This document shows positions 2,166 through 64,000 of a DNA stretch of 64,000 nt, in pieces. Origin of the DNA: an uncultured Gemmatimonadales bacterium. Lineage in GTDB: Bacteria; Gemmatimonadota; Gemmatimonadetes; Gemmatimonadales; GWC2-71-9. Where the stretch lies: the NCBI GenBank assembly GCA_963821525.1, contig CAWGED010000019.1:544001-608000 (forward strand), given 5' to 3'. The notes below the pieces were generated by a model. The model was not told where the DNA came from. It did not search any database and was given only the letters and a program-made list of their open reading frames with translations. Made by a program: the position numbers and the translations under genes. The stretch's first letter is position 1; every line of letters begins with the position of its first letter.

Positions 2166-2320
2166 TCGATGGTCGTGGGTCATGAGTCATGAGTCTTGAG
2201 TCTTGAGATCTCCGAAATAGTACCCAGGGCCACTGGCTACCACCCAATCACTGACTATCGACCATCGACCATTGACACACGACCCACGACTCAAGACTCG
2301 CGACCACCATTGACCATCGA
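2151..2320. repeat. Heptamer-built (GACNNNN) inverted repeat cluster overlapping the MCO stop and the kinase start
   Basis: GTCGATGGTCGATAGTC (2151-2167) is the reverse complement of 2253-2269. GAGTCTTGAGTC (2191-2202) pairs with 2288-2299, and TCGTGGGTC pairs with GACCCACGA at 2281-2289. Confidence 0.85.
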
Positions 2321-4922
2321 CGATAAACTGTCGGCCGCACTCTCCGACCGCTACCGCATCGAGCGGGAGCTGGGACAGGGAGGCATGGCTACGGTGGTCC
2401 TGGCCCACGACCTCAAGCACGATCGCCAGGTCGCGATCAAGGTCCTGCGGCCGGAGCTCGCGGTCATGATCGGGAGCGAGCGGTTCCTGCAGGAAATCCG
2501 GGTCACCGCAAGGCTTCGTCATCCCCATATCCTGCCGCTCTACGACTCGGGCGCCGTGGACGGCGTCCTGTACTACGTCTCCCCTCTCGTCGAAGGCGGT
2601 TCCCTCAAGGCGCGGCTCGAGCGCGACGGCAAGCTGCCGGCGGTCGAGGCGGTCCGCATCGCGCGCGAGGTGGCGGACGCGCTGGATTTCGCCCACCAGC
2701 GCGGGGTGATCCATCGCGACATCAAGCCCGACAACATCCTGCTCGAAGCCGGACACGCGGTGATCGCGGATTTCGGGATCGCACGAGCGGTCTCCGCGGC
2801 CGGCGCGGATCGGATGACTCAGGCCGGGGTGAGTGTGGGAACGCCGGCCTACATGAGTCCCGAGCAGGCCAGCAGCGAACTGGAAATCGACGGGCGGGCG
2901 GATATCTACGGGCTGGGAGTCGTGCTCTACGAAATGCTGTCGGGGAAGCCGCCGTTCACCGGGCAAACTCTGCAAGGCTTGATCGCGGCCGTCCTGACCC
3001 GGGAGGCGACACCGCTCCCCGCGTCACCCGATGTTCCGCCTGAACTCAGCAAGGCGGTCTCCAGAGCGATGGCGAAGAAGCCATCGGACCGCTTCGCGTC
3101 GGCGCGCGAGTTCAGCGATGCACTACGGTTTCACGAAGAGCCACAGTCTGCCGCCGGAGCGTCGGCTCGTCGGATTCGAGTCCTCGCCTTCGCCGGCCTG
3201 GGGGCCCTCGCTGTCGTCTTCTGGCTGACCACTCACCGGACCCAGGCACCTCCACGAGCCGCCGCCACGCGACTGGCCCAGCTCACCTCGGACGAGGCGG
3301 TGGAGGAGTGGCCATCGTGGTCACCCGACGGGGCTCGACTGGTGTTTTCGCGGACGGTCGCGGGCTACCGAAACCTGTTCCTGCGAACCTATCCAGGTGG
3401 AGAGGAAACACAGCTCACCAGAGGCTCCCGGGACGATATCCAGGCTTCATGGTCGCCCGACGGTAGCGTGATCGCGCTGGTCCGTTCCAGTCTCTCCGAC
3501 GGCAAGCTCGAGCCCGGAGACGTGCTCGGCTTGTATGCCGAAGGCGGCGATGTCTGGACGGTCGATCCCAAATCGGGAGCCGAAGAGCATCTCCTCTCGG
3601 GAGCCTTCAGCCCCAGCTGGTCGCCCGATGGGAATCACATCGCGGTAGACGCCGGCTGGGGAGGAGCGCATCGGATCTGGGTTACCGACAAGAACGGTCA
3701 CAATCCGCGGCAGGTCACGAGCGACAGCTCGAACGAGGTGGCCCACATGAGCCCCCGCTGGTCGCCGGACGGGAAGCGCCTGGTCTTCCGGAGATTCCAG
3801 CAACCCAAGTCCGACATCGTCGTGGTGGATCTCGCGACCGGCAAGACGACGTGGGTGACTCACGACGATGTTACGGATGTGAATCCGGCCTGGTCCCCCT
3901 CAGGACGGTTCATCTACTTCTCTTCCCTGCGGGGCGGAGGACTCAACCTCTGGCGAGTGGCGGTTTCCGAGAGCGGCGAACCACGGTCGCCACCGGAGCA
4001 GCTTACCACGGGCGCGGGGGACGATCTCGAGCCCTCGATCGCACCCGACGGGAAACGCCTCGCCTTCTCGATCTTCCGCATCGAGGCCGACCTCTGGCGG
4101 CTGCCGCTCGACCCGGTCACCGGGAAAACGACCGGGAAGCCCGAGCCGGTCATCGCCACGACTCGGGTGGAGAGCCGGGGTGCCTGGTCTCCGGATGGAC
4201 GCACCATCGCGTTCAATTCGGATCGTAACGGAGACATGAACCTGTGGCTGCATTCGGAGGGCGAGACCGACCGGCAACTCACCAGTGGTCCGGGAGGCGA
4301 CTACCAGCCGAACTGGTCGCCGGACGGGAAGGTCATTGCGTTCTTCTCTTCCCGATCAGGCCAGAACGACATCTGGACGGTTCAGTTGGCGGATACCGCG
4401 CTCAAGCGGCTCACATCGGATACCGGGATTCACATCAATCCGTTCTTCTCCCCGGACGGGAAATACATCGCGTACCATGAGGACCGCGACGGCCGCTTCC
4501 AGCTCTGGGTGATGAACGCGGATGGCTCGAATCAGCACCAGCTCTCGAGTGATGGCGCGGCCGGCCATTTCATGCGCTGGTCGGCGGACGGCAAGAGCGT
4601 CATCATCCGGGCGGAACCTCCCGGAGGCACGCAGATTCTGTCAGTCAACGTCGAGACCGGGGCCGTCGAGCGCCTGCCGGATGTGGCGGGCGGCAGCCAC
4701 ATGTCCTTCTCGCCCGATCATAGCCTCGTCCTCGATGTGAAAGGCCACAAGACCATCTGGATCACCCCGATGAAAGGCGGCTCCCCGTATCAGATATTCG
4801 AGTTTCCCGATCCCGCCATTCGCATCGATTATCCAGTCTGGTCTCCCGACGGACATTTCCTGCTGTTCGATCACGACGCGCCACACGGAGGTGACATTTG
4901 GCTGCTGGATGGAGTCGAGTGA
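2310..4922 (+). CDS. Ser/Thr kinase K1: kinase + TM + PD40/TolB-like beta-propeller
   Basis: GQGGMA, VAIK, HRDIKPDN, DFG and GTPAYMSPE motifs, a TM segment, then many WSPDG repeats. TTG start at 2310 inferred from paralogue leaders (MTID..LS.AL.DRY). Confidence 0.93.
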   Translation: MTIDDKLSAALSDRYRIERELGQGGMATVVLAHDLKHDRQVAIKVLRPELAVMIGSERFLQEIRVTARLRHPHILPLYDSGAVDGVLYYVSPLVEGGSLKARLERDGKLPAVEAVRIAREVADALDFAHQRGVIHRDIKPDNILLEAGHAVIADFGIARAVSAAGADRMTQAGVSVGTPAYMSPEQASSELEIDGRADIYGLGVVLYEMLSGKPPFTGQTLQGLIAAVLTREATPLPASPDVPPELSKAVSRAMAKKPSDRFASAREFSDALRFHEEPQSAAGASARRIRVLAFAGLGALAVVFWLTTHRTQAPPRAAATRLAQLTSDEAVEEWPSWSPDGARLVFSRTVAGYRNLFLRTYPGGEETQLTRGSRDDIQASWSPDGSVIALVRSSLSDGKLEPGDVLGLYAEGGDVWTVDPKSGAEEHLLSGAFSPSWSPDGNHIAVDAGWGGAHRIWVTDKNGHNPRQVTSDSSNEVAHMSPRWSPDGKRLVFRRFQQPKSDIVVVDLATGKTTWVTHDDVTDVNPAWSPSGRFIYFSSLRGGGLNLWRVAVSESGEPRSPPEQLTTGAGDDLEPSIAPDGKRLAFSIFRIEADLWRLPLDPVTGKTTGKPEPVIATTRVESRGAWSPDGRTIAFNSDRNGDMNLWLHSEGETDRQLTSGPGGDYQPNWSPDGKVIAFFSSRSGQNDIWTVQLADTALKRLTSDTGIHINPFFSPDGKYIAYHEDRDGRFQLWVMNADGSNQHQLSSDGAAGHFMRWSADGKSVIIRAEPPGGTQILSVNVETGAVERLPDVAGGSHMSFSPDHSLVLDVKGHKTIWITPMKGGSPYQIFEFPDPAIRIDYPVWSPDGHFLLFDHDAPHGGDIWLLDGVE

Positions 4923-9237: not shown

Positions 9238-12200
9238 TTGGATCCACCATCAGTCTCGAGCCCCGGCTGCAAGCTGCTCTGGGTGATACCTACCGCGTCC
9301 TGAAAGAACTGGGAGGCGGGGGGATGAGCCGCGTCTTCCTCGCCGAGGAAACCCGGCTGGGGCGGCAGGTGGTCATCAAGCTGCTCCCGCCCGACATGGG
9401 CGCCTCGGTCAATGTCGAGCGGTTCGAGCGGGAGATCCAGCTCGCCGCCCGCCTGCAGCACCCGCACATCGTCCCGCTTCTCGCCGCCGCCGCTTCCGGC
9501 GATCTGCTGTACTACATCATGCCCTACATCGCGGGCGAGTCGCTCCGGGCCAAACTGGCGCGGGAAGGAGAGCTGCCCGTCGCGGAGGCCGCCAAGATCC
9601 TGCGCGAGGTGGTGGACGCGCTGTCCTACGCCCATCGCAATGGCGTCGTGCACCGCGACATCAAGCCGGACAACGTTTTGCTCTCGGATGGGCACGCCGT
9701 GGTCACCGACTTCGGCGTCGCCAAGGCGGTCACGGCCTCCAGTGGCAAGTCGTCACTGACTTCGCTCGGCGTGGCGCTGGGGACCCCGGCCTACATGGCG
9801 CCGGAGCAGGCGGCGGCCGATCCCCACGTGGATCATCGCGCCGACATCTACGCCGTGGGTGCCTTGGCGTACGAGATGCTCACCGGCCGCACGCCGTTCG
9901 TCGCACCCACACCGCAGGCGCTGCTCGCGGCCCACATCACCCAGGCGCCGGAGCCGGTCACCAGGCACCGTCCTGCAGTGTCCGCGGCGTTGAACGGCGT
10001 TCTGATGCGCTGCCTCGAGAAGCGTCCCGCAGATCGGTGGCAGAGCGCGGGTGAGTTGCTGGTCCAGCTCGAGGCGGCGACGACTCCCAGCACAGGCGGC
10101 ATGACTCCCACCGGAACCACGCCGGTTGTCTCGAGCGGCACCGAGGAGGCGATTCGAAAGAGTCACCCGCTCAGAGTCGGGTTGCTGTTCGGGGCCGCCT
10201 CGCTGGGAGTGCTGGGTCTCGTTTACCTGCTGGTCCACCAGCTCGGCCTGCCCGACTGGGTCTTCTACGGCGCCATCGGACTGCTCCTCATCGGGCTGCC
10301 GATCATGCTGATCACCAGCCGCTTCGAGCGCCGCAGAGCGCTGGCCCGCGCCAGCGGCCGGGTCTCGATGACACCGAATCAGGGTCTGCATCGCTGGTTC
10401 ACCTGGAAGAAGGCCATTCAGGGCGGCATCATAGCCTTCGCCACACTAGGTGTGATCGCCGTCGTCTACACCGCCATGCGCCTCCTCGGCATCGGCCCGG
10501 TCGGAACCCTCGTGGCATCAGGACGGCTCAAAGAACGAGACCGCCTGGTCGTGGCCGACTTCGAGAACCGGACTGCCGATCCAAATCTGGCTGGATCGAT
10601 CACCGAGGCATTCCGGATCGACCTCGGCCAGTCTCCTGTCGTTCAGCTCATGAGTACCGCCCAGGTCAGCGACGCGCTGCAGCGGATGCAGCGGGATCCG
10701 AATACCCCGATCACGAGCGCCGTGGCACAGGAGATCGCCGCCCGGGAAGGGGCAAAGGCGGTCGTGGCGGGGGAGATCAGCTCGGTCGGCAAGGGCTATG
10801 TGCTGTCGGCCCGCATCCTGAACGCCGGGGATGGTGCCGAGCTGGTGGCACTGCGGGAGACTGCGACCGATGACGCCGGAATCGTTGCTGCGATCGATCG
10901 GCTCTCCGGTCATGTTCGGGAGCGAATCGGGGAATCCCTCAAGACCATCCGGACCGGCGAGCCGTTGGATCAGGTCACGACCTCTTCGCTCGAGGCGCTC
11001 CGGCTCTACTCCGAAGGGTCGCGGCTCAACGACCAAGGCTCCCCCGACAAGGCGATCCCGCTGCTGGAGCAGGCCATCGCGCTGGACAGCGGCTTCGCCA
11101 TGGCGTGGCGCAAGCTCGCGGTCGCGCTGGGCAACACCCGCGCCAGTCAGGAGCGACAGATCCTTGCCACCACCAAGGCCTACCAGCATCGCGATCGCCT
11201 GCCGGAGGTCGAACGACAGTTCACCATCGCCTACTACTACGACAATGTGGAGATCGATCCGGCAAAGGTGGAGGCAGCCTACCGTCGCATCCTGGCCATG
11301 AGGCCGGAGAACTACGGAGCAACCAATAACCTGGCCCTGTTCCTGGGGCGGATGGGTCGAGCCGCAGAGGCGGAATCGGTGGCTGCCCCCATGGCGCGCT
11401 CGGCGACCACCGTGGGCAACATGAACATGCAGCTCCTCAACGCGCAGCTCGCCCAGGGACACGCGGCCGACGCGCGGCGCACGCTCGAGACGATGGCGAG
11501 GCTCGACTCGACCGCACCGGTCTATCTGCGCGGACGGGCCATGACTTTGGGTGCCATCGGGGAGTACGACAGCGCTCAGCGGGCGTGGCTGGATGTGGGG
11601 CTCAAGCTCCGCGATCCGAGCTATCAGAGCATGGCGTCCATGGGCCTTGCCACGATAGCCCAGACCCAAGGCAGACTGGCCGAGGCCGAGCGGCAGACTC
11701 AGCTCAACATCGGCATTAGTGAACGGCGTGGACTCCCGGGCGCCGCGTTGGAGGGAGCGGCGAGTATTGCCCTGCAGTACGCGCTGTTCCGTCGGGACAC
11801 GGTTGCGGCCCTCCGCCTCATCCGCTCGGCTCTCCAGCAGCGGCCGCTCAACTCCATCCCGGCGCTCGATCGCCCCGGTGATGCGATTGCGCTGGTTTAC
11901 GCCGTTGCGGGGCAACCTGCCGAGGCACGGCAGTTCCTCCGAGAATACGAAGCGACGGTCCCCGAAGGGGTCCGACGCGGCAACTGGGGATGGTACGTCG
12001 CGACGGGATGGTTGGCCCTCGCGGAGAACCGACCGGGGGACGCGGTCGCCGCCTTTGTGCGAGGCAGAACTGCGCCCAGCTGTCCCGACTGCGGAGCCTG
12101 GCAGGAAGGCATCGCATTCGAGCGGGCCAACCAGCCGGACTCGGCGATTGCCGCCTACCAGCGTGCGGTTGGCCCGGGGACCGGCTGGAAGTCGCTGGCG

Positions 12201-12395
12201 GACCCCTGGGGACTGGCGCCGAGCCTCAAGCGACTGGGTGAGCTCTACGAGGAGCGGGGCGACAAGGCAAAGGCACTCGACTACTACACCCGATTCGTGG
12301 CGCTCTGGAAGGACGCCGATCCCGTGCTCCAGCCGAGCGTGCGCGAGGTGCGGGGGCGGATGGCGAAGCTGGCGGGGGAATCGGTGAGGCAATAG
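9238..12395 (+). CDS. Ser/Thr kinase K2: kinase + about 3 TM + TolB_N-like + TPR repeats
   Basis: ORF 9324-12395 extends upstream in frame as RLQAALGDTYRVLKELGGGGMSRVFLA. It has HRDIKPDN, DFG, three hydrophobic helices, a VVADFENRT domain and TPR-like helices. The probable TTG start at 9238 needs a 1-nt indel, so the start is uncertain. Confidence 0.9.
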
Positions 12396-12717: not shown

Positions 12718-12777
12718 TTGACTATCGACCAGCAGCTCTCGACCTCACTCTCCGACCGCTACCGCATCGAGCGGGAA
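12718..12777 (+). pseudogene. Orphan kinase 5' stub (MTIDQQLSTSLSDRYRIERE)
   Basis: TTGACTATCGACCAGCAGCTCTCGACCTCACTCTCCGACCGCTACCGCATCGAGCGGGAA, preceded by GACNNNN heptamers. Similarity to kinases ends abruptly. Confidence 0.85.
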
Positions 12778-14359: not shown

Positions 14360-15157
14360 ATGCCCGGGACCGACACCCGGCTGATGTTGCGCACCCTGGG
14401 CGCGGTCGGCGTTGACGGCCACCGCGACGCGGGAGTAGTGCCGATCTCCATCCAGCCGAAACGGCTGGCCCTGCTGGTCTACCTCGTCCTTCATTCACCA
14501 CAGTTCTGTCGCCGGGATACCCTCGTCGCCCTGTTCTGGCCCGAGCTCGACCACGCGCACGCGCGTGGCGCGCTCCGACAGGCGGTGCGCGGGTTGAGGC
14601 GGCTCTTGGGAGAGGAGGCGGTAGTCACCCACGGCGAGGAGGAAGTAGGTGTCTCATCGGATCGGCTCTGGTGTGACGCCGCGGCGTTTGAGGCCGAGGC
14701 GTTGGCCGGTCGATCGCCAGCGGCGCTCGAGCTGTATCGGGGCGATTTCCTGGCGGGGTTCTTCGTGGACGATGCGGCGGCAGAACTCGAGTTCTGGGTG
14801 GATCAGACCCGCGCTCGACTCAAGAACCAGGCCCATGAGGCAGCCAGGCGGCTACTCGATGCCGCCGAGCAGAGCGGCGACCACCCGGGGGCCGTGTCAT
14901 GGGCCCGTCGAACGATGGAGCTGATGCCCGACGACGAGCGGGGAGTGCGTCACCTGATCCGGTTGCTCGATGCCCGGGGAGACCGCGCCGGTGCGTTAGG
15001 CGCGTACGAGGCCTTCCGAAAGCATCTGATCGCTGAACACGGGGTAGAGCCGTCGCCCGAGACGCTGGCGCTGATTGATCAGGTGCGCTCTCGGAAACAG
15101 CTGGTCTGGGAGTCACCGCTCAGGGGCTGGCCTCCGACAACCCCGTCCACGGACTGA
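14360..15157 (+). CDS. SARP-family transcriptional activator (wHTH + BTAD)
   Basis: LRTLG...PKRLALLVYL...RDTLVALFWPE...ARGALRQAV..LRR.LG, CDAAAFE, ALELYRGDFLAG and EPSPET are typical DnrI/AfsR-like wHTH-BTAD signatures. Confidence 0.88.
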   Translation: MPGTDTRLMLRTLGAVGVDGHRDAGVVPISIQPKRLALLVYLVLHSPQFCRRDTLVALFWPELDHAHARGALRQAVRGLRRLLGEEAVVTHGEEEVGVSSDRLWCDAAAFEAEALAGRSPAALELYRGDFLAGFFVDDAAAELEFWVDQTRARLKNQAHEAARRLLDAAEQSGDHPGAVSWARRTMELMPDDERGVRHLIRLLDARGDRAGALGAYEAFRKHLIAEHGVEPSPETLALIDQVRSRKQLVWESPLRGWPPTTPSTD

Positions 15158-24056: not shown

Positions 24057-24095
24057 TTCCAAAACAGCGGGAACGGGAAGGAGAAGCAAGAGGGC

Positions 24096-24199: not shown

Positions 24200-24277
24200 C
24201 TTACACCGGTGCATTCCGCAGTTCCCTTTACTGTCCCCAATCACGTTCTACATCACTTCCACTCACGGTCTGTCCGC

Positions 24278-26080: not shown

Positions 26081-26098
26081 ATCCTACCTCTACTGCAG

Positions 26099-45993: not shown

Positions 45994-46077
45994 TTGACCA
46001 TCGACCATCGACTATCGACCGCGCTGTCTGACCGCTACCGCATCGAGCGGGAGCTGGGCCAGGGCGGCATGGCCACG
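45994..46077 (+). pseudogene. Orphan kinase 5' stub ([28 protein letters not shown])
   Basis: The first 80 bp are identical to 43446-43525. It ends at the right-end hairpin of the IS200-like element. Confidence 0.9.
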
Positions 46078-46523
46078 CTTTCCGCGGCTGAGAGCCGCGG
46101 CTCGGCTGATGTCGCTGAAGCGACGGGCCGGGCGGTCCAACCCGGTATGGCCTCATCGGGATGGTGCGTGTGCTGATGGCGCACATAGGCTGCCGCCACA
46201 CCCCGTTGGCGAGGACTCACACTGATCACGCTGTATCCTTTGGCCCATCGCAGGGCGGGGTCCTGCAGTGGCGCGCCACGATTGATCAGGGTAGCGGTGC
46301 CGCCCTTCATGCGTTGCAGCAGTCGGGGAATGACGGTAGAAGGATGCAGGCGCACCAGCAAATGCAGGTGCGTGGTCACGATACCGAGCTCGAGTACCCG
46401 CGCCCGCTCCTGCCGAGCAATAATGGGGAGATGCTTCCAGAGGTACTCGGCACGGGGCCGATCTATGGTCGGCTGACGATCACGGGTGGTCCAGACGATA
46501 TGGACCAGGAGCTGATGATGCAT
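46035..46523 (-). CDS. tnpA: Y1 HUH transposase (IS200/IS605 TnpA)
   Basis: VHIVWTTRDR, HUH motif HLHLL, MKG, W..GY.V.SVS and catalytic YVRHQ (YxxxQ). Confidence 0.9.
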   Translation of the reverse strand: MHHQLLVHIVWTTRDRQPTIDRPRAEYLWKHLPIIARQERARVLELGIVTTHLHLLVRLHPSTVIPRLLQRMKGGTATLINRGAPLQDPALRWAKGYSVISVSPRQRGVAAAYVRHQHTHHPDEAIPGWTARPVASATSAEPRLSAAESVAMPPWPSSRSMR

Positions 46524-52194: not shown

Positions 52195-54541
52195 GCACGA
52201 TTCCGGAATCACTCATTGCCGCCCTCGCCGACCACTACAGGATCGAGCGGGAGCTGGGCCGGGGCGGGATGGCGGTCGTCTATCTCGCCGAAGACCTGAA
52301 GCACCACCGGCGGGTCGCGATCAAGGTGCTCAAGCCGGAACTCTCCGCGATAGTCGGGAGCGAGCGGTTTCTCCGGGAGATCGAGATCGCGGCGACGCTG
52401 CAACATCCTCACATCCTTCCGCTCTTTGACTCCGGACAAGTGACCGCAGGTCATCCCGAGCGAAGCGAGGGACCCCAGTCGTTCCTCTACTACGTGATGC
52501 CATTTGTCGAGGGTGAATCGCTACGGGAGCGGCTTACCCGGGAGACGCGGCTTCCCCTCGACACCGCTCTGCAGATCATCCGCGAAATCGGGAGTGCGCT
52601 GCAGTACGCCCACGAGCACAATGTGGTGCATCGAGATGTCAAACCAGAGAACGTCATGCTGTCCGGAGGCCATGCCGTCGTGGCGGACTTCGGCATCGCC
52701 CGGGCACTGCAGGCCAATGCGGAGCAGCTGACCATCACGGCATGGTGGTTGGTACCCCGCAGTACATGAGCCCGGAACAGGCCAGCGGTGAGGTCGTGGA
52801 CGGCCGGTGCGATCAGTACAGCCTGGCTTGCACCTTGTACGAGATGCTGGCCGGCAAGCCGCCCTTCGTCGGGCCCACGCCCCTCGTGGTCCTGGCCCAC
52901 CACTCGGCCGCGCCGATCCCGAGCTTGCGTGGGAGCCGGGAGGACGTGCCGGCAGCGGTAGCGGGTGCCGTTGCGAAGGCGATGGCCAAGCGGTCTGCGG
53001 ATCGCTTCCCCTCGATACCCCAGTTTCTCGATGCGCTGGATCCGCGGCAGATGACCGCCGTCATGCCGGTCTCGTCTCAACGCCGCTCGAGGCAAGCGAC
53101 TGCGATCGCGGCTGGCGCACTTCTGGTTGCGGCCTTGTGGTGGGTAATCATGAAACGCGGATCCCACCCGGTGCCGAGCGGAGTCACCGCGATCGCGGTG
53201 CTTCCCTTCCTCGATTTGGCCGGTAGCCCGGACACGACCTACCTGGGACTCGGAATGACCGATGGGCTCATCGCCGATCTGGCTGAGGTGGGCTCGCTGA
53301 AGGTCATCTCACGCTCCTCCGGTGCGACGGCCCAGGGCGCGGCACGATCGCTCGCGGATCTGAGCAGCGAGCTGGGAATTCAAGGCGTAGTGCAGGGCTG
53401 GATCGGCAGGATCGCCGATACGGTTCGCGTGAGGCTGCGATTCCTTCACGCCCCAGACAGCACAATACTTTTTGCGAAGGATTATCAGCGTCGCCTCGGT
53501 GAGCTGCCGGACCTGCAGCGGGAGATCGCGACGGCCCTCACCGGCTCAATCGGCGCAAGCGTCAAGGGGACCGAACAAAGCCGGCTCGCTGTACGCGGCG
53601 CAGTGGAGCAGCGCGCCTATGAAGCGTTCCTTCGCGGCCGGTTCTACCTGGAGCAGGAGGAAGTGGAACTGGCACGGGCCCAGTTCGAGCAGGCGAGCCG
53701 TATCGCACCGGACTGGGCCCCTCCTTACGTGGGCATGGCGAACTACTACACATCGCTTCCTTTCTACACCGACGTTCCACCGGCGGTGGTGCTGCCCAAG
53801 GCCCGTGCGGCGCTGGTCCATGCCCTGCAGCTGGACGAGACCCTGGCCGAGGCGCACGCGGTCAACGCCTACATCCGGGCCTACTATGAATGGGACTGGC
53901 GCGCGGCAGAGCAGGAGTTCAGGCGGGCCCTCGAGCTGAGGCCCAACTATGCAGACGCGTACTTTTCCTACAGTCGCTTTCTGGCCTCACAGCGCCGCTT
54001 CGATGAGGCCATTGCCCAACTCGGCCACGCCGTGGAGCTGGACCCGCTCTCTCTTTCCCTCCAGACCAACCGCGCCCTGCTCGAGTACTTCGCCGGACGC
54101 TACGACAAGGCCAAGCAGGGGCTCATGGACGTGCTCAAGAGCGACTCCACCGACAGGCTGTCCAAATGGGGGCTGGCACTGGTTGCCGAGCAGCAGGGGC
54201 GGGTGGATGAAGCGATCACGATCCTGGAGCGATTAGGCGGGACTAGCCTCAACACCAAGTCTTCGCTGGGTCATGCCTATGGGCTTGCGGGGCGAGCCAC
54301 GCAGGCCCGGAGTGTCCTGCGCCTCCTTCAGACCGAAGCCGAGCGCAGCTACGTGCCATCCTATTTCTTTGCACTCGTGCACACCGGGCTGGGCGAGCGT
54401 GATCAGGCGCTCCGGTATCTTGAAAAGGCTTATGAGGAGCGTTCTACCGTGTTGGCCTATGTCCAGATCGATCCGCGATTGGCCTCGCTCAGGACGGAGC
54501 CACGGTTTGTGGCTCTGGTCCGGCGTCTCAACGGCGAGTGA
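52191..54541 (+). CDS. Ser/Thr kinase K14: kinase + TM + TolB_N-like + TPR, one frameshift near 52740
   Basis: ORFs 52191 and 52742 give [18 protein letters not shown], TPRs and SLRTEPRF. Confidence 0.9.
52450..52474 (+). repeat. Half REP-like palindrome inside the K14 kinase domain, encoding HPERSEG
   Basis: GTCATCCCGAGCGAAGCGAGGGACC closely matches the arms of 9011-9102. Confidence 0.8.
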
Positions 54542-54596: not shown

Positions 54597-57270
54597 TTGA
54601 CCATCGACCATCGACTCTCGACCTCGCTCGCCGACCGCTACCGCATCGAGCGGGAGCTGGGTCAGGGCGGCATGGCGACCGTGTATCTCGCCGAAGATCT
54701 CAAGCACCACCGGAAGGTCGCGATCAAGGTTCTCCGGCCGGAGCTCGCCGCGGTCGTCGGAGCCGACCGTTTCGTGCGGGAAATCGAGACCACCGCCGGC
54801 CTGCAGCATCCCCACATCCTCGGACTCATCGATTCCGGCGAGGTGAATGGCACCGCGTACTACGTCATGCCGTTCGTCGAGGGCGAGTCGCTGCGCGACC
54901 GGATCACCCGGGAGAAGCAGCTCCCGCTGGATGACGCACTGCGCATCGCACGGGAGGTCGCGGATGCGTTGAGCTACGCCCACAACAAGGGCGTCATTCA
55001 TCGCGACATCAAGCCGGAGAATATCCTGCTGACCAGCGGTCACGCGGTGGTCGCCGACTTCGGCATCGCCCGGGCCATCAGCGCGGCGGGCGGCGAACGG
55101 CTCACCGAGACCGGACTCGCGGTCGGCACGCCGGCGTACATGAGCCCGGAACAGGCCGCCGGGAGATCGCGACCTCGATGGGCGCAGCGACCTGTACGCG
55201 CTGGCCTGCGTACTCTACGAAATGCTGGCGGGTGAGCCGCCCTTCAGGGGACCAACAGTCGAGGCCGTAGTCCGGCAGCATCTCACCGTCGAGCCGCGAT
55301 CGGTCACCCAGTTACGGCCCGCGGTGCCGGCGGAAGTGGCGGAGGCACTGAACCGCGCGCTGGCCAAGACGCCGGCGGACCGGTTCAATCCAGTAGGGCA
55401 GTTCTCGGAGGCGTTGGGACGAGGAACCTTCGCGCCTCGCGATGGCGGGACTCGCGTCGTCTCCTGCCCCGCGCTCCAGCGCACCGGTCATCGCCGCACT
55501 TGCCATCCTCGCCCTCGGCGCGATCGGCATATGGTATTGGCGCCATCGTGGTCCTGCTCCGCTCGAAGTGCAACGGCGGACTCAGGTGACGATCGATCCC
55601 GGACTCGAGCTCGATCCGGCGCTCTCCCCCGATGGGAAGTTCATCGCCTACTCCGGGCCGAAGGGCGCGCTGATGGTGCGGCAGGTCGAAGGCGGGGTGC
55701 CAATCGCGGTCGTGCGCGATGGCGGCGGGACCGGGCGCTGGCCCACCTGGACGCCTGATGGTCAGCGTATCCTCTATATGTCGCAGCGCGGGATCGAGAT
55801 CGTGCCGGCGCTGGGCGGAAGCTCCCGTCTCCTGATGGCAGACAGCGCCAGGCCCCGCGGAGTGGCCATCGCGCCTGACGGGAAGTCGTTCGCGTTTGCC
55901 TCCCACGACTCCATTTTTGCCAAGCCGCTGGATGGCGGAGCGCCGCGACTCGTCACCGTGGGTTGGGAGGTGCATTCCTATGCCTGGTCGCCTGACGGCC
56001 GCTGGATCGCCTTCGTCTCGGGCAACCGCAGTACATCAACTCCAGCGACCTGGGGAACTTCGCGCCGAGCAGCATCTGGATAGCTCCGGCGGCCGGTGGC
56101 GCTTCGATTCGGGTGACCGACGACCAGTTCCTGAACGTCAGTCCCGCCTGGACTCGGCGGGGATCCCTGCTCTACCTCTCCTCTCGCGACGGGGGCCGCG
56201 ATGCATACGAGGTCAATCTGACCCGCTCCGGGGCGCCATCGGGTGCGCCTTCCCGACTCACCACCGGCCTCAATGCACTCAGCATCAGCATGTCGCTGGA
56301 CGGCAGCCGCTTCGCCTACTCGGCGTTCAGCGAGACGTCGAACATCTGGTCCATCGCCATTCCCACGAGCGGTGCCGTTTCGATCTCGCAAGCCACTCCG
56401 GTGACCGCCGGAAGCCAGATCATCGAGAACATCGGGGTGTCGCATGATGGTCAATGGGTTGCGTTCAGTTCTGATCGAGGCGCGGGTTCCCAGATCTACC
56501 GCCTGCGACTGGGCCCGGGGCCGGGGAACCGCAGCAGCTGACATCCGACTCTGTAGGCGCGTACTGGGCCGATTGGTCTCCTGATGGAAGGGAAATCGCC
56601 TTTCATGAATTCGTTGGGGATCACCGCGAAGTTTTCGTCATGTCCTCGGATGGGAACTCCCCCGTCCAGGTCACGAGAGGTGCGGGACGACGAGCGCTCA
56701 CCGGACTGGTCTCCGGACGGCAGGCACCTGATCCTGATCGCGAACTGGGGCACCCACCCTGCCCTTCACATAGTGACGCGCGGCCAGGATGGGAAATGGT
56801 CAGCGCCGCAGCCGTTTACCATCGTCATCGGCTCTGACACCATTGCCACGCGAATCGGGTCGTGGTCCCCCGATGGCAAGTACATCGCGTGTGGATGTGG
56901 CCCGGGAGGGGTTGTGCTCGCTCCGGTGGCGGGCGGCTCGGCCCGCCGACTGGCCTCTCCGTTCCCAACCAATGGCTGGACCTTTCCGCAATGGTCGGCG
57001 GATGGGAAAGTCATTTACCATATCGTCGAGGATTCGGGCAGGGTAATGGGCGTCGCCGCGGTTCCGGTTTCCGGAGCGCCGCCCCGACTCGTCCTGCGCT
57101 TCGATGACCCGGCACGTCCCTGGCACCGCTATGGATTCCGGGTTCGCGGCGACCGGATCTATTTCACCCTGGGCGACCTGCAGAGCGACATCTGGGTCGC
57201 ACGAGGTAGGGAGACAATGAGGCGATTTCAAATTGGCAAATTTCAAGTTTGCAAATTTCTGATTTCATGA
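54597..57270 (+). CDS. Ser/Thr kinase K15: kinase + TM + PD40 beta-propeller, several frameshifts
   Basis: MTIDHRLSTSLADRY leader. ORFs 54273, 55222, 55442, 56113 and 56584 stitch to ...QSDIWVA. The exact stop is uncertain. Confidence 0.86.
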
Positions 57271-57328: not shown

Positions 57329-59959
57329 ATGAGTAGTGAGCGCCTCAGGGCAAGCCTCTCCGACCGCTACCGCATCGAGCGGGAGTTGGGCCAAGGCGGC
57401 ATGGCGACGGTATACCTCGCCGAGGACCAGAAGCACCGGCGCAAGGTCGCGATCAAGGTGCTCCGGCCGGAACTCGCCGCGGTGATCGGCGCGGATCGGT
57501 TCGTCAGAGAGATTCAGACGATCGCCGCGCTGCAGCATCCCCACATCCTGGGCCTCATTGACTCGGGTGAGGTGAATGGCACCGCCTACTACGTGATGCC
57601 GTTCGTGGAAGGCGAATCACTCCGGGACCGCCTCAATCGGGAGAAGCAGCTCCCCATTCCCGATGCGATCCGCTTCGCGACCGAAGTGGCAGGGGCCCTC
57701 GACTACGCCCACCGGCACGGCGTCATTCATCGCGACATCAAACCTGAAAACGTGATGTTGCACGATGGCTCCGCTCTGGTGACCGACTTCGGCATCGCGT
57801 TGGCAGTCACCTCGGCGGGTGGAAACCGGATGACCGAGACGGGGATGTCGCTGGGCACCCCGCACTACATGAGCCCCGAGCAGGCGATGGGCGAACGGGA
57901 GATTACCGCCCGGAGCGACATCTACGCCCTCGGTGCGATGACCTACGAGATGTTGACCGGCGAGCCTCCGTTCAGCGGACCTACGGCCCAGGCGATCGTC
58001 GCCAAGGTGCTCACCGAGGAACCGAGACCTCTTGTCCCGCGACGCCACACCATTCCGGCAAACGTCGAGGACGCAGTGCTGACTGCTTTAGAGAAGCTCC
58101 CCGCCGACCGCTTCGGAACTGCGCAGGAGTTTGCCAATGCACTGAAAGACGGAAAGGCGGAGACCCGGGAAGAAAGAAGACGACAGTCGAGCGCGCCTGC
58201 ATCGCAGCATCGCCTCCCGTTGATGGTTGGAGCAATCGCGCTGCTCGGGGCTGCGTTCTGGCTGGGGCGCGGAAGTGCCCGCAGTGAACCGCTGCCCCTG
58301 AGTTTCGGCCCGGCGATCAAGGTGACCTGGGATCCTGCGATGGAAGTCCTCCCCGCCATTTCCCCGGACGGGAAGAGCGTCGCCTACGCAAGCGGGAACA
58401 GCACTCGCACCCGGATCTTCGTCCGTTCGATCGCTGGAGGTCGGTCCATTGCCCTCACCGACGACACCAGCCAGGTGCAGTCCCATCCCCGCTGGTCGCC
58501 GGACGGAAGTCGAGTGCTGTTCCTCCAACGGGGAGGGGTGTTCAGCGTCCCGGCCTCTGGTGGAGCGGAAACGCCGGAGGTCCCACCGAGCCGGACCAGT
58601 CCCGTGGGGTCGGCGGCCTGGTCCCCGGATGGCAAGAGCATCGGATACGTCATCGGAGACTCGCTGTTCGTTCGTGATCCGGGAGGCGCGTCTCGGGCGA
58701 TTGCGGGTTTCTTCGAGCCCAGCGGTTGTCAGTGGAGTCCCGATGGGGAGTACATCGCGTGTACCTCGGGCAATGCGGTGTCGACCACGATCGGCCAGCT
58801 CTTTGGAAATCTCTCTCCCAGCAAGATCGTCACCGTCCGCGTCAAGGACGGCTTGGTCTCTCCCATCACCGATAGCCTTTCGTTTAATCTGAGTCCCATC
58901 TGGTCGCCCGATGGCCGGTGGCTCTATTTCGTCTCCAATCGCTATGGCCCTCGTGACGTGTTCGGGGTGCGGATGAGCGGGGGCAAGCCCTCGGGAACGG
59001 TCTTGCGATTGACTACGGGGCTCAAGGCACACACGATCTCGATTTCTGCCGATGGGCAGCGGCTGGCCTTCGCCAACTTTGAGGTCGAAAGCAATGCCTG
59101 GTCGTTCCCGATCCCAGCCCATCCACCGGTGATCGCCACGGGCGAAACCCAGCTCACCTTCGGGATGCAGCTGGTGGAGTCGGCCGATCTTTCCCCTGAC
59201 GGACGCTGGCTACTCTATGACTCCGACGTGAGCGGGAACGCAGATGCGTATCGGATGCTGCTGCCAAACGGTACCCCGGAGCAACTGACTACCGACCCCA
59301 GCGATGACTTCTTCCCCACCTATTCGCCCGATGGCAAAGAGGTCGCTTTTCATTCCTGGCGGGGAGGATCGCGTGACGTCTACGTCTTGCCGCTCGATGG
59401 CGGCCCACTTCAACGGGTGAGTTCCTCGCCCCGCCAGGAAGCGATCGCGGACTGGTCACCCGACGGCAACCACCTCACCTTCTCCGATTTCTCCAGCACC
59501 GGTGGGATCTGGACCGCCGAGCGACGCAACGGCGTGTGGCAGCAGCCGGTGCTGCGGCTCTCCCACGGATACTGGTCCCGCTGGTCCCCCGACGGCGGAT
59601 TCATCGCGTTCAGCAGCCAGCTTGCCGGCGGCTCCATCTGGGTCATGCCGGCGGACTCGGGTCCGCCGCGCCTCCTCGCCGATTCGACCGGGCCCGACGC
59701 CTTCGTCGGCGATCAGCCAGTGTGGACATCAGACGGGCAATCGATCATCTCCCGCCGGGACACTCCGGAAGGGGCGACCCAGTTCTGGTCGGTCCCCGTT
59801 CACGACGGCCCTCCCCGGTTACTCATCACCTTCAATGCCGGGGGCCTGACGCCGAGTCGCGGAGGATGGGTAGTTCGGGCCAATCGCTTCGTGTTTACCG
59901 CGCAGGCCCAGCAAAGCGACGTGTGGGTGATGGAGGTCGGTGGGGCCTCAAGGAGATAG
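57329..59959 (+). CDS. Ser/Thr kinase K16: kinase + TM + PD40 beta-propeller
   Basis: Intact ORF with kinase motifs, a TM, WSPDG repeats and QSDVWVME. Confidence 0.94.
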   Translation: MSSERLRASLSDRYRIERELGQGGMATVYLAEDQKHRRKVAIKVLRPELAAVIGADRFVREIQTIAALQHPHILGLIDSGEVNGTAYYVMPFVEGESLRDRLNREKQLPIPDAIRFATEVAGALDYAHRHGVIHRDIKPENVMLHDGSALVTDFGIALAVTSAGGNRMTETGMSLGTPHYMSPEQAMGEREITARSDIYALGAMTYEMLTGEPPFSGPTAQAIVAKVLTEEPRPLVPRRHTIPANVEDAVLTALEKLPADRFGTAQEFANALKDGKAETREERRRQSSAPASQHRLPLMVGAIALLGAAFWLGRGSARSEPLPLSFGPAIKVTWDPAMEVLPAISPDGKSVAYASGNSTRTRIFVRSIAGGRSIALTDDTSQVQSHPRWSPDGSRVLFLQRGGVFSVPASGGAETPEVPPSRTSPVGSAAWSPDGKSIGYVIGDSLFVRDPGGASRAIAGFFEPSGCQWSPDGEYIACTSGNAVSTTIGQLFGNLSPSKIVTVRVKDGLVSPITDSLSFNLSPIWSPDGRWLYFVSNRYGPRDVFGVRMSGGKPSGTVLRLTTGLKAHTISISADGQRLAFANFEVESNAWSFPIPAHPPVIATGETQLTFGMQLVESADLSPDGRWLLYDSDVSGNADAYRMLLPNGTPEQLTTDPSDDFFPTYSPDGKEVAFHSWRGGSRDVYVLPLDGGPLQRVSSSPRQEAIADWSPDGNHLTFSDFSSTGGIWTAERRNGVWQQPVLRLSHGYWSRWSPDGGFIAFSSQLAGGSIWVMPADSGPPRLLADSTGPDAFVGDQPVWTSDGQSIISRRDTPEGATQFWSVPVHDGPPRLLITFNAGGLTPSRGGWVVRANRFVFTAQAQQSDVWVMEVGGASRR

Positions 59960-60088: not shown

Positions 60089-61558
60089 ATGCAGCCAATT
60101 CCCGAACGTCTAAAAGCAGCCCTTGCCGACCGCTACCACCTCGAACGGGAGGTGGGACAAGGCGGAATGGCCACCGTGTACCTGGCCGAAGACCTGAAGC
60201 ACCACCGGAAGGTGGCGCTCAAGGTGCTCCGCCCGGAACTTGCAGCGGCACTCGGCTCCGAGCGTTTTGTCCGTGAAGTCGAAATCGCGGCCCATCTGCA
60301 ACACCCCCACATCTTGCCACTCTTTGACTCGGGCGAGGCCGACGGCTTCCTCTACTACGTGATGCCCTTCGTCGATGGCGAGTCCTTGCGGGAGCGGCTC
60401 AAGCGCGAACGAGCAATCCCCATCGTCGAAGGAGTACGCATCCTTCGCGAGGTAGTGGACGCGCTGGCCTACGCGCATCAGCACGGCGTCGTGCACCGCG
60501 ACATCAAGCCCGATAACGTGATGCTCTCCGGCCGGCACGCAGTGGTCACCGACTTCGGCGTGGCCAAGGCCGTGAGCGCAGCGGGTCAGGACAAGCTCAC
60601 GACTGTCGGCGTGGCCCTCGGTACTCCGGCATACATGGCGCCGGAGCAGGCCATGGGCGAGACCAATCTCGATCAGCGGGCCGATATCTACTCGGTCGGT
60701 GCGCTGGCCTACGAGCTTTTCACCGGTTCGCCCCCGTTCGACAAGGCCACCGCGCAAGCGCTGCTTTCGGCCCACGTCCTCGAGAAGCCGGTCCCTCCTT
60801 TGACCCGGCGTGCGGAGATGGCGCCCGCCTTGTCGGACCTGGTGATGCGCTGCCTCGAAAAGGAAAAGGACGCGCGCTACCAGACCGCTGATGAGATGAT
60901 CCCCGCCCTCGAGGTTCTGGGCACCCCTAGCGGCGGGGTCACTCCCACGCACACCCGTCCCCTGCTGGCGGCCAAGATCAGGCGAGGGCGGAGCGGGGGC
61001 ATCGTCGGTCTCGTCGCCGCGGCGCTCGTTGTGCTCGCAATGGCGGGTTGGATGCTCTTCCGTCGACCAGGAACGGGCAGTGGAAGGATCAATCAGTTGG
61101 CCGTGCTCCCAATTCAGGACCTTTCGGGGAAGGATCAGGTGTTCGTGGATGCCATGCACGACGCGTTGATCAGCGCCATCGCCCGGAAGCAGGTGGTGGG
61201 CGTGGTCTCCCGTTCGGCAGTGATGCGCTTCAAAGGCGCCTCCGGCACAACTGAGGAGATTGCAAGGGCGCTCCATGCCGATGCGGTCATCGAGGCCACC
61301 GTTTTCCGGGATGGTGACCGGATACGGATCAACGTCCAAATGACCGAACCCATTACCCTCCGCTACCTCTGGGCCCAAACCTATGAGCGAGATGTGAAGG
61401 ACGTGCTCGACGCCCAGCGGGAGATCGTAGACACCATCGCCGCCGAGGTGGCCGGCGCGCTCAAGGGACAGACTCCCGCGCCGCATGCCGGCGCCATGCT
61501 CAATCGACCCACAGGCGACCTTTACGTCCTCGTCCCCAGGGAGAAGCGGCCAACATGA
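60089..61558 (+). CDS. Ser/Thr kinase K17: kinase + TM + TolB_N-like domain only
   Basis: Kinase motifs, a TM and LAVLPIQD...LWAQTYER, with no TPR or propeller following. Confidence 0.9.
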   Translation: MQPIPERLKAALADRYHLEREVGQGGMATVYLAEDLKHHRKVALKVLRPELAAALGSERFVREVEIAAHLQHPHILPLFDSGEADGFLYYVMPFVDGESLRERLKRERAIPIVEGVRILREVVDALAYAHQHGVVHRDIKPDNVMLSGRHAVVTDFGVAKAVSAAGQDKLTTVGVALGTPAYMAPEQAMGETNLDQRADIYSVGALAYELFTGSPPFDKATAQALLSAHVLEKPVPPLTRRAEMAPALSDLVMRCLEKEKDARYQTADEMIPALEVLGTPSGGVTPTHTRPLLAAKIRRGRSGGIVGLVAAALVVLAMAGWMLFRRPGTGSGRINQLAVLPIQDLSGKDQVFVDAMHDALISAIARKQVVGVVSRSAVMRFKGASGTTEEIARALHADAVIEATVFRDGDRIRINVQMTEPITLRYLWAQTYERDVKDVLDAQREIVDTIAAEVAGALKGQTPAPHAGAMLNRPTGDLYVLVPREKRPT

Positions 61559-63486
61559 GAATCCCCCTTGTCGTGGTCACACTCGGCGCGCTGGCAGTCA
61601 TGGGGTGCCGTGAGAAATCCGCGGGAACGGAGCGCACAGTGCTCACACCGGGCGAAGGGACCTACCGCTACGCTCGCTACTCGCCCGACGGAACTCGCCT
61701 CGCGTTCGTTACCGACCAGGGGGGCAAGCTGGCCGTGTGGACAGCCGGGGCGGACGGGAGTCGGGCCCGGGCAGTAAGTCCGGCATCCAGTTGGTTGATG
61801 TACCCACGCTGGTCGCCGGACGGAAAGTCGATCGCGTATTTGTCGGATGCCGCGGCCCCGCCGGACGTGTGGGCAGTGCCGGCCGACAGCGGAGAAGCGC
61901 GGCGCCTGACGAGCGCACCGAGCCTGGAATTCAACGAGCGCTGGTCGCCCGACGGCAGCCGCATCCTCTATTCCGGTAATCAGTCGGGGAATTTCGACCT
62001 GTACATGGTCTCGCCCGAGGGAGGGGCATCCGAAATCCTGCCAGCCGGCGGGGGGAACAAGTTCGCCGAATGGTCGCCCGACGGGAAACGCATCCTGTAC
62101 AGCCGTGTCGAAGGAGGAAAGACCACGATCTGGGTCCTTACGCTCGACAGCAAGACGACGAAGCAGATCACGACCGAGGGCCATGAGACTCCCATAGAGT
62201 GGTCGCCGGACGGGAGAGAGATCCTCTACACCTCGGACCGCACCGGGCTGCGCGACGTGTGGGTGGTGCCGGTGGACAGCGGCGACCCACGGCAACTCAC
62301 CCGCGACATCCGCGGCGATTGGGCCCCGACCTGGTCGCCTGACGGACGCTGGGTGGCATATCTCTCGGGGGCCGGTGGGCAGCAGGATGTCTGGATCGTC
62401 GCAGCCCAGGGAGGTCAGCCGATCCGGGTCACGAACGACGCGGGAGAGGAGGAGCGACCTGATTTGGACGCCCGACGGCAAGGGGGTCACCTTCTCCTAC
62501 ACCGAAGGGGTCGCTCAGCTATGGGTGCAGCCCGTGGCGGGCGGCGAGCCGCGGCAGCTCACCACGGGCCTCAAGGAGCCGTTGGAGCCACAAGTCTCCC
62601 CGGACGGCAAGTGGGTCGCTTTCAACTCCTATCGAACGCGGGAAACAACGACGTGTGGGTCGTTGGCATTGCCGGCGGTGAACCCCGACAGCTCACCACC
62701 AGTGACGCTAACGACTTCACGCCTCGATGGTCGCCGGACGGGTCCCGCATCGCGTTCATCTCCTCCCGGAATGGGAATGACGACATCTGGGTCGTGCCAG
62801 CCTCGGGCGGCGAGCCCACCCGGCTTACCTCCTTCACCGGCGATGAGGGCGATCCCCAGTGGTCGCCGGATGGCCGCACCATCGCGTTCGATGCCAGCTT
62901 CGAAAGCTCAACCAACGACATCTGGAGCGTACCTGCGGAAGGCGGGACACCGACCCGGCTCACCCGACTCGGGAACGCCTCAACACCCCGGTGGTCTTCG
63001 GATGGGCGGACGATCGCATTCTTCATGGGAAAGACCGGCCAAGGCCAGATCGCTACCATCCCGGCAACCGGTGGTCAGCCGGTACAGCTCACGAGATCGG
63101 TATTCAGCGGCCTTCAAGAATGGTCGCCCGACGGCCGTCGGCTCGCGTTCGTAACTTTTACGGCGAAACAGTTCGAGGTGGCCATCATCGGAGCGGACGG
63201 TTCGAATCTCCGCACCCTCACGTCCAATGACGTGTGGGACCTCTTTCCGGTGTGGTCGCCGGACGGCTCAATGATCGCGTTCGCCACCCAGAACAAGGGC
63301 CACTACGACATCGCCGTGATGGATTCGTCGGGCGCGAACCTGCGGGTTCTTACCAACACGCCGGCAGACGAGGCGGCGCCCCAGTGGACGCCGGACGGAA
63401 AGTCGTTGGTCTTCTCTTCAGTCAACGAGAATCGCAAGCTGGTGACGGTACGGGTCGAGTCGTTGCTGGCGAGGAGTGCTCCTTGA
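61555..63486 (+). CDS. PD40/TolB-like multi-blade beta-propeller lipoprotein (compensating frameshift pair at about 62455-62630)
   Basis: ATGA overlap with the K17 stop, MRIPLVVVTLGALAVMGC lipobox-like signal, and about 14 SPDG-type repeats. Confidence 0.85.
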   Translation: MRIPLVVVTLGALAVMGCREKSAGTERTVLTPGEGTYRYARYSPDGTRLAFVTDQGGKLAVWTAGADGSRARAVSPASSWLMYPRWSPDGKSIAYLSDAAAPPDVWAVPADSGEARRLTSAPSLEFNERWSPDGSRILYSGNQSGNFDLYMVSPEGGASEILPAGGGNKFAEWSPDGKRILYSRVEGGKTTIWVLTLDSKTTKQITTEGHETPIEWSPDGREILYTSDRTGLRDVWVVPVDSGDPRQLTRDIRGDWAPTWSPDGRWVAYLSGAGGQQDVWIVAAQGGQPIRVTNDAGEEERPDLDARRQGGHLLLHRRGRSAMGAARGGRRAAAAHHGPQGAVGATSLPGRQVGRFQLLSNAGNNDVWVVGIAGGEPRQLTTSDANDFTPRWSPDGSRIAFISSRNGNDDIWVVPASGGEPTRLTSFTGDEGDPQWSPDGRTIAFDASFESSTNDIWSVPAEGGTPTRLTRLGNASTPRWSSDGRTIAFFMGKTGQGQIATIPATGGQPVQLTRSVFSGLQEWSPDGRRLAFVTFTAKQFEVAIIGADGSNLRTLTSNDVWDLFPVWSPDGSMIAFATQNKGHYDIAVMDSSGANLRVLTNTPADEAAPQWTPDGKSLVFSSVNENRKLVTVRVESLLARSAP

Positions 63487-63564: not shown

Positions 63565-63677
63565 TTGACCCTCGACCAGCGATCTCCTCCGCACTCGCCG
63601 ACCGCTACCGCATAGAGCGGGACCTGAAGCACCACCACAAGGTGGCGATCAGAGCTCCAGCCGAACTCGCGTCGTAA
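63565..63677 (+). pseudogene. Orphan kinase 5' stub with internal deletion
   Basis: ALADRYRIER is joined directly to DLKHHHKVAI (the [14 protein letters not shown] segment is missing). Flanked by GACNNNN heptamers. Confidence 0.85.
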
Positions 63678-63958
63678 GTCTTGAGTCGTAGGACCCACGA
63701 CCACTGACCATCGACTATCGACGGCCGCCCAGCGACTTTTCCGACGGCCGAGACCAATGATGGCGGGCAGAGGTCATCCGGGTAGCTTTAGAACGCACTC
63801 CTGATCCAAATAACGCGAGACAGACCAGCACCCCCGCTTGGGGGAATAACATGCTGAGCCGGCGGTGAGGTAACCGTTATAACGCTCCTCGACACCAAGG
63901 CACGCTCGGAGCGACCGTCTTTCCCGTCTCCCCGTCTCCCATCTCCCAGGGTTAGGCC

Positions 63959-64000
63959 TTGACCATCGACCAGCGACTTTCGACCGCTCTCGCCGACCGC
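63959..64000 (+). CDS. Start of next kinase or stub (MTIDQRLSTALADR), truncated by window end
   Basis: TTGACCATCGACCAGCGACTTTCGACCGCTCTCGCCGACCGC. Confidence 0.75.
   Translation, partial: MTIDQRLSTALADR

Follow-up and report, generated by a model that had tools for sequence, protein, structure and literature searches.

A cassette-like array of receptor-type Ser/Thr kinase genes in Gemmatimonadales, with units probably exchanged at the start of the kinase gene

The genome of an uncultured Gemmatimonadales bacterium (GCA_963821525.1, here G000; 4.33 Mb, 81% complete) carries on contig CAWGED010000019.1 (C19) an array of 21 receptor-type Hanks Ser/Thr kinase genes, k1 to k21, the larger part of which lies in the stretch analysed here, the 64,000-nt window C19:544001-608000, whose positions are used for all features. 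The content and order of the units vary between related genomes, joins fall in the core of the kinase 5' end (the head), some kinases are chimeric, and one clade of IS200-like Y1 transposases is tied to the heads. These observations probably add up to a gene-cassette array, in which units are exchanged at their heads while a transposase rides the junctions. The expansion of bacterial signalling genes is commonly attributed to dispersed duplication; here they appear to behave as an array of cassettes joined at the beginning of the kinase gene, and they do so in an abundant, barely cultured order of soil bacteria.

The array of receptor-type kinases is confirmed as real. By tblastn, the + strand of the window encodes 17 complete kinase domains, 12 of them (k6-k17) between 30.3 and 61.6 kb, in agreement with the first-pass annotation made from the letters alone; four further kinases follow beyond the window (C19:607974-618969), and a Big_1 gene and dnaK mark the right end. 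The genome as a whole contains about 85 kinase loci. The HRD and DFG motifs are present, in some frame, in all 21 array kinases, the lysine motif (VAIK) was matched in 19 (k2 has VVIK, and k11 is broken at that point), and Pkinase scores above the Pfam cut-off in every intact open reading frame. By hydropathy only, a hydrophobic helix follows the kinase in 16 of the 17 members in the window and in 20 of the 21 in the array (KD19 1.65-2.76, against 1.01 in k9). The tails comprise ten propellers (k1, 3, 5, 6, 7, 10, 12, 13, 15 and 16), six of the TolB_N+TPR type (k2, 4, 8, 9, 11 and 14) and one with TolB_N only (k17), the very counts proposed earlier; the classes derive from Pfam, NCBIfam matches to the N-part of TolB (k8, k9) and a motif scan, with k11, which lacks a Pfam match because its gene is in pieces, assigned by eye. 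The short form of k17 is genuine, its G001 orthologue likewise measuring 485 aa. Stop/start overlaps, described earlier as several, do occur, but there are only three in the window (k3/k4, k13/k14 and k17/propeller lipoprotein), fewer than that word implies.

Between the same flanks, the congener G003 has 19 kinases and shares 14 of the 21 G000 tails in the same order, whereas the congener G004 has 13 kinases and only seven of the tails, in the order 1, 2, 15, 19, 8, 20, 12, with the PP2C and PALP genes relocated as well. Comparison of the orthologous locus, suggested at the outset as a check, has thus given one collinear and one reshuffled congener, and the cassette-like, expandable character claimed for the constant heads and variable tails is borne out, since kinase number and order differ between congeners. 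Along these lines, a unit in third place in G001 and G002 is the eighteenth in G003, and G004 possesses a second array of nine kinases at a site that is free of kinases in G000. Co-oriented arrays were furthermore found in each of the five other genomes of the family that the analysis covered (G085 with 24 kinases, G155 and G496 with 15 each, G080 with 13 and G194 with 5), and in three of the five (G080, G085 and G194) they adjoin the same oxidase or acylase anchor as in G000. In other families (five genomes) one has seven kinases in a row and one has three, and a 7.5-Mb, three-contig genome of another family has dispersed kinases only; the unpublished genomes G018 and G148 enter tallies only. 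Some twenty orthologous sensor types, whose presence is strain-variable, can be matched to habitat.

The joins themselves are placed by metagenome contigs and by identity profiles. Three contigs (L115, L117 and L130; 97-98% identical to G000, and possibly a single lineage) are without 10.3 kb carrying k8-k11: the own leader of k7 runs into the head core and from there into the stub, the transposase element and k12, such that the switch lies inside the core and the two ends have only this ~45-nt core in common. A fourth contig, L116, has kept k11 at that junction. On L116, a short ATGA-coupled leader lies 3' of k11, and the corresponding G000 segment (45868-45995) is a spacer made of a heptamer hairpin, with a TTG leader at its end; it looks as if a repeat element had replaced the start. 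In 37 pairs profiled for identity, many breakpoints are no more than 100 nt away from the head, and some, in the chimeric kinases k7, k13 and k14, lie 300-400 nt inside the kinase. The kinases k11 and G003_k10 are identical to about +45 and then drop to 70-80%, the level of paralogues. Of 210 paralogue pairs, 120 have their longest exact match in the first 110 nt; 48 pairs show identical stretches of at least 30 nt there, as against 13 pairs in the remaining 740 nt. Synonymous codon identity of the array kinases reaches 0.83 in the codons ADRYRIEREL of the core versus 0.37-0.65 elsewhere, and 0.49 in dispersed kinases. Joints in contigs at 90% likeness were not used, being short-sided and mostly from kinases of other organisms.

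The features of the window are the following (strand in brackets; TM, transmembrane helix; stub, a 5'-only kinase head; REP, repetitive extragenic palindrome; REPIN, a pair of inverted REPs).
2310..4922 (+): k1, kinase-TM-PD40 propeller; conserved first array member in the genus
9264..12395 (+): k2, kinase with several TM helices and a TolB_N+TPR tail; the head is divergent, and the start codon, which is uncertain, lies slightly upstream
12718..12777 (+): 5'-only kinase-head stub, then cargo genes
14360..15157 (+): SARP-type regulator (winged HTH + BTAD), immediately 5' of k3; candidate substrate
15165..17795 (+): k3, kinase-TM-propeller; not in the G003 or G004 arrays
17792..20716 (+): k4, kinase-TM-TolB_N+TPR; GTGA overlap with k3; not in the G003 or G004 arrays
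20805..23450 (+): k5, kinase-TM-propeller
23770..30001 (no strand assigned): cargo block with DUF2277 (family match made on the G003/G004 orthologues), secreted protein, NAGPA-like protein, acyltransferase, S9 peptidase and CAP protein
30103..30289 (+): stub and REPIN-like element with two inverted arms, two hairpins per arm
30317..32995 (+): k6, kinase-TM-propeller; frame slips in the tail
33007..35645 (+): k7, kinase-TM-propeller; frameshifted in G000, intact in G003 and G002
35654..35852 (+): stub and REPIN-like element; left-hand limit of the 10.3-kb block that L115, L117 and L130 lack
35884..38236 (+): k8, kinase-TM-TolB_N+TPR; different place in the G004 order, tail 95.5% identical
38337..40619 (+): k9, kinase-TolB_N+TPR without membrane helix; probably soluble
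40647..40695 (+): single REP arm, preceded by a short leader remnant
40715..43374 (+): k10, kinase-TM-propeller; intact in G003 (tail 99.5%)
43446..45868 (+): k11, kinase-TM-TPR type; leader and head shared with G003, where the body differs from about +45 onward
45994..46075 (+): 5'-only stub; right-hand limit of the block that L115, L117 and L130 lack
46035..46523 (-): IS200-like HUH (Y1) transposase with HLH and Y---Q--HH motifs, without tnpB
about 46078-46127 and 46576-46622: REP arms flanking the transposase
46648..49350 (+): k12, kinase-TM-propeller
49520..52194 (+): k13, kinase-TM-propeller
52191..54541 (+): k14, kinase-TM-TolB_N+TPR; TTGA overlap with k13
54597..57220 (+, end approximate): k15, kinase-TM-propeller; frameshifted in G000, intact in G003
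57329..59959 (+): k16, kinase-TM-propeller; not in the G003 or G004 arrays
60089..61558 (+): k17, kinase-TM-TolB_N only
61555..63486 (+): free PD40 propeller protein with a lipoprotein-type signal (by eye); ATGA overlap with k17
63565..63625 (+): degenerate stub that has lost an internal piece
63959..64000 (+): start of k18; beyond the window k18-k21, a PP2C phosphatase, another stub and a PALP gene, then dnaK

In the G000 assembly, frameshifts interrupt 7 of the 21 kinase domains and several stubs stand among the genes, as might be expected of an assembly artefact or of a heap of decaying pseudogenes, a reading to which we attach almost no probability and which is refuted for the array as a whole. 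In the same assembly dnaK is likewise in three pieces, the orthologues of k7, k8, k10 and k15 are intact in G003, and contigs from independent runs mend the indels at 33019, 33121, 33548 and 49531 and also span the passage from stub to transposase gene to k12; the frameshifts are therefore mostly sequencing errors. All 37 kinase units on the G001 and G002 contigs are open through the kinase, and arrays occupy the same locus in other genomes; a mis-assembly, considered at the outset, does not agree with arrays between the same flanks in two congeners. Single members, for example k11, may have decayed.

The tails tell what kind of array this is. No pair of G000 tails matches over 900 nt, the best within-genome pair in any array reaches 67.6%, and tails have counterparts in other genera and in other orders. 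Fourteen propeller tails share 22-51% aa identity (median 27%), while their kinases share 57-85% (median 77%). Orthologous tails have ratios of nonsynonymous to synonymous substitution (dN/dS) of 0.03-0.33 with a median of 0.14 (18 pairs, not independent), and kinases a median of 0.05; a whole-domain value can mask a few selected sites. The ratio on the tails, put forward initially as a check, thus indicates purifying selection up to its maximum. Plant receptor-like kinase (RLK) clusters, likewise made up of clustered kinase-TM-variable ectodomain genes, had been offered as an analogy, which holds for the protein architecture but not for the evolution: tails do not recur in the array and are under purifying selection as whole domains, and this is therefore no duplication cluster of the plant type with its recent local copies. 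The array is a collection of units.

An ordinary birth-and-death history of an ancient tandem cluster, with vertical inheritance, deletions and rare rearrangements and without any pool of cassettes, would account for the collinearity of G003 with G000, for the age and conservation of the tails and for the thin signs of transfer, and the kinase clades do mostly track tail class, with 6 changes of class required on the kinase tree (66 labelled rows) versus about 20 in shuffles. Those same six changes mean that kinase phylogeny and tail class are not fully congruent, as a static ancient duplication would have had them. We judge such a history doubtful, given the reordering in G004 and between G001/G002 and G003, the second array of G004 at a kinase-free site, the lack of recent duplicates in G000, and the four-unit difference among contigs that are 97-98% identical.

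The cassette reading has to carry several observations that weigh against it. In the five other arrays the synonymous identity of the core is 0.68-0.76 versus 0.42-0.86 elsewhere. The leaders show an identity of 0.58 where only the upstream tail is common, 0.58 where only the own body is (33/44 pairs in the two single-sharing sets), 0.80 where both are and 0.49 where neither is; a model of pure head-to-head exchange would have them go with the upstream tail. Since they track neither upstream tail nor own body, a further process probably renews the spacers. Several 3' breakpoints coincide with stop codons, and 45 nt of imperfect homology is a short substrate for RecA. Evidence for transfer of units between species is thin: k8 and k20 are 95.5% and 93.7% identical to G004, against flank windows with a median of 85.9 and a maximum of 94.3, and the units of the second G004 array are 94-96% identical, but its contig flanks are 90-98% like G000, so that the high unit identities are no proof of transfer. 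A universal att-like core is unsupported, the excess being clear only in this genus, and the second G004 array was dropped as proof of transfer because its flanks are as G000-like as its units. A unit made of tail, spacer and next 5' end fits single cases (k10/k11, k8/k9, the k7 stub) and does not fit others. Heptamer repeats occur genome-wide in G000 and are the source of many TTG leaders. Loci L018-L023 (G004 C5) have flanks 90-98% like G000 C6 while G004 C1 is at about 86%, which would agree with a shared island or a mixed bin.

Five stubs lie in the window; a REPIN-like element of 110 nt comes after two of them, and the IS200-like Y1 transposase gene, between REP arms, after another. The tyrosine motif of the transposase reads YVRHQHTHH, and its nearest relatives are from Gemmatimonadales or Gemmatimonadota. 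Of the 65 relatives that remain once 9 duplicate or partial loci are set aside, 27 stand antisense beside a kinase head, 35 do not, and 3 are too short. The kinase-linked genes all fall in one clade (Shimodaira-Hasegawa-like approximate likelihood ratio test, SH-aLRT, 96), in which 27 of 29 labelled loci, with one more unlabelled, are at a kinase head and always antisense; none of the 33 loci outside the clade is. The neighbouring kinases are mostly non-orthologous genes. Catalytic motifs are intact, with Y---Q--HH visible in the aligned part of 22 of the 27 kinase-linked enzymes. The first REP hairpin follows the Asp codon of the head by 53 or 54 nt in 26 of 28 distinct stub junctions, which comprise at least five linker types, some rows being orthologous. 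Related REPIN-plus-leader pieces precede unrelated bodies; the element therefore brings its own start.

REP matches are found inside arrays in 8 of 13 cases in G000 (in 1.7% of the genome), 7 of 12 in G003, 7 of 8 in G004, 9 of 19 in G496 and 10 of 32 in G155; in the last, REPs stand ahead of heads without stubs and the transposase lies outside the clade. The arrays of G085 (24 kinases), G080 and G194 contain neither REP nor tnpA, and the G085 genome has no REP match. A strict stub-REPIN pattern, which is rigid and misses linkers of the tnpA type, was met in 3 of 401 genomes of the phylum. The transposase scores 58.6 bits against NF033573 (IS200/IS605; cut-off 55), but it is present as one copy and without tnpB; Y1 transposase matches at E<=1e-20 number two in G000. 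An identity as REP-associated tyrosine transposase (RAYT, TnpA_REP, class 2) was rejected for want of a Y---NP motif, and the CGTC-tagged REP families differ in stem and loop, Gemmatimonas not being mentioned in the paper on them. An AlphaFold model of the transposase built with no alignment (predicted local distance difference test, pLDDT, 40) was not used. A second Y1 transposase of G000 (C12:49275-49970; 50% identical) has related REP arms and is not beside a kinase. At C5:984243-984451 the first 36 nt of a tRNA-Ser gene are duplicated upstream, and the two copies are separated by heptamer repeats together with a REP arm from the family found in the array; this is the layout stub-REP-full gene at a non-kinase target.

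A more active part for the HUH transposase would be that of the array integrase, cutting at the foot of the REP and just behind the glycine-loop codons of the head, so that bodies move as single-stranded circles and the stub-REP junctions serve as landing pads completed in frame. The constant hairpin distance despite at least five kinds of linker, the concentration of REPs in arrays, the intact catalytic motifs and the 3' breakpoints at stop codons, which need a non-homologous step, would suit such an enzyme. A fixed spacing is, however, also expected from few founding junctions spread by core recombination; three arrays do without REP or tnpA, some elements stand behind stop codons or short leaders, and among orthologous pairs none was found in which a single body makes the difference at a stub-REP junction. 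We regard an integrase role as rather unlikely, and equally so its extension to an integron-like system lacking an integrase of known type, in which a domesticated HUH transposase would recognise REP hairpins and a site within the glycine-loop codons, and soil Gemmatimonadales would trade a pool of periplasmic sensors as single-stranded cassettes, the landing pads providing the gene start; if true, a TnpA_Y1 subclass not known to serve its host would acquire such a role.

In the exchange at heads that we prefer, each unit begins with the same kinase 5' end, best kept in the ~45-nt core. A homologous crossover between two heads would remove a whole unit, add one, exchange it for another or shift it to a new place, and crossovers farther inside the kinase would yield chimeras. 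An incoming piece that spans two heads could insert at a resident head, which would explain co-orientation, full-length units and hitch-hiking cargo. Units may arrive from other cells, with RecA and DNA uptake presumed; ComEC is present in G000. To its right, the transposase/REP element would bring along a fresh leader and head core, leaving the old start as a stub; with this replacement it could enter a head without destroying the gene, and would act as passenger or accelerator without being required. The tie between transposase clade and kinase head, with a 45-nt target and a fixed distance, offers a sharp test of the role of non-transposing Y1 enzymes and REPs for or against their hosts.

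As to function, the architecture and known Hanks kinases suggest a cytoplasmic kinase, one membrane helix and a periplasmic propeller or TolB_N+TPR domain that would bind a ligand or partner. We commit to periplasmic sensing of peptides or of envelope or organic fragments as the predicted function; the most probable ligands are peptides, fragments of the envelope or other organic matter from soil, and binding would activate the kinase, near-alike kinases feeding overlapping substrates and the PP2C phosphatase of the array resetting them. The tails resemble TolB, DPP IV and tricorn propellers and TPRs, the cargo enzymes are of the hydrolase, phosphatase and oxidase kinds, and a SARP-type regulator stands ahead of k3. 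SARP-type regulators are known substrates of Hanks kinases. A PDB sequence search with the tails returned only TolB and generic TPR proteins, and an Atlas search PD40/Tricorn_N clusters of Acidobacteriota and Gemmatimonadota; neither gave a ligand clue. In RNA runs at most 0.08 of the words were present. The free propeller lipoprotein is likely a separate sensor part of k17. The pair (60089-63486), kept in G001, has the appearance of a split TolB-like receptor.

An innate-immune or phage-sensing repertoire under arms-race selection, raised in the first-pass annotation as recognition of phage or non-self, would fit the turnover of whole units and their clustering, which resemble defence loci, and the kinase domains do score against the PD-T4-6 and MAD6 models. 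PADLOC and NCBIfam, however, gave generic kinase-domain matches only (MAD6 at 169-187 bits against a cut-off of 460), no full-length match or partner gene of PD-T4-6, MAD6 or PglW was found, and none of nine non-kinase proteins matches in PADLOC. The cargo encodes hydrolases, phosphatases and oxidases, joined in G004 by a polysaccharide cluster, the tail dN/dS is low (median 0.14), and viral contigs contain no exact head match. Defence finds no support in these data and appears improbable.

Among known systems, the lpl cluster of S. aureus consists of co-oriented paralogues with a conserved stretch in each open reading frame that serves as crossover site, and is rearranged in close genomes (Tsuru and Kobayashi 2008, PMC2568036). 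The kinase array is alike in the conserved nucleotide stretch per gene and in rearrangements between close genomes with crossovers there; it differs in that the stretch is at the 5' end, the receptor genes are 2.4-3.1 kb long, tails are only about 27% alike, the unit of tail, spacer and next 5' end fits single cases only, and a transposase/REP family sits at the junctions. In rhs loci, a constant core is joined to variable C-termini, and homologous recombination with circular, laterally acquired units was proposed (Jackson et al. 2009, PMC2935791). The rhs orphans are 3' tips behind one full gene, whereas here all bodies have a head and the orphans are 5' stubs; the kinase array moreover encodes sensors, not toxins. 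With integrons the array shares ordered, co-oriented, dissimilar units of changing content, but no integrase is nearby (three tyrosine recombinases in G000, the nearest >200 kb from the array, and no serine recombinase found in the 81% complete genome), no attC series was found (a simple pattern gave a single pair of complementary cores over 77 kb), and units are joined within coding sequence that belongs to the cargo itself.

TnpA_Y1 subclass 1.2 is characterized by Y---Q--HH, a short core, low copy number and absence of tnpB, generally lacks IS200-type terminal structures and comes mostly from Cyanobacteria and Bacteroidetes (Quentin et al. 2018, PMC6006769). The array transposase resembles it in motif, core, copy number and lack of tnpB, as judged by these features rather than by that paper's profiles, and differs in the one clade tied to kinase heads; neither "Gemmatimonad" nor "kinase" is mentioned in that text. 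As in REPtrons and REPINs, inverted REP-like arms flank the transposase and non-autonomous copies lie elsewhere. A survey of membrane Hanks kinases lists TPR and PD40 among the commonest partner domains (PMC2877116). The array kinases are like known Hanks kinases of the kinase-TM-repeat type, but the known examples are dispersed single genes, and the literature searches gave no array of this sort. In M. tuberculosis, PknD and PknB are membrane Hanks kinases of the kinase-TM-extracytoplasmic repeat type. In the literature covered, which takes in few subscription journals and no supplements, no paper was found that describes arrays of kinases in Gemmatimonadota or places Y1 transposases beside kinase genes.

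Some minor observations concern the neighbourhood. Multicopper oxidase paralogues (65% alike) at 295-2185 and 4950-6756 flank k1, with a penicillin-acylase gene next. The octamer GGCGGAAT is repeated in about 28 head-to-tail copies immediately 3' of the k2 stop codon (12395-12620), and the cargo reading frames at 13001-14134 and 24197-25187 have no Pfam, NCBIfam or PADLOC match. In G004, loci L012-L014 (C1, about 1.396-1.424 Mb) form a 27-kb exopolysaccharide cluster within the kinase array, with two stubs after it; the cluster is unmatched in G000. Finally, a selenocysteine tRNA was detected by ARAGORN at C5:1056970-1057067 of G000.

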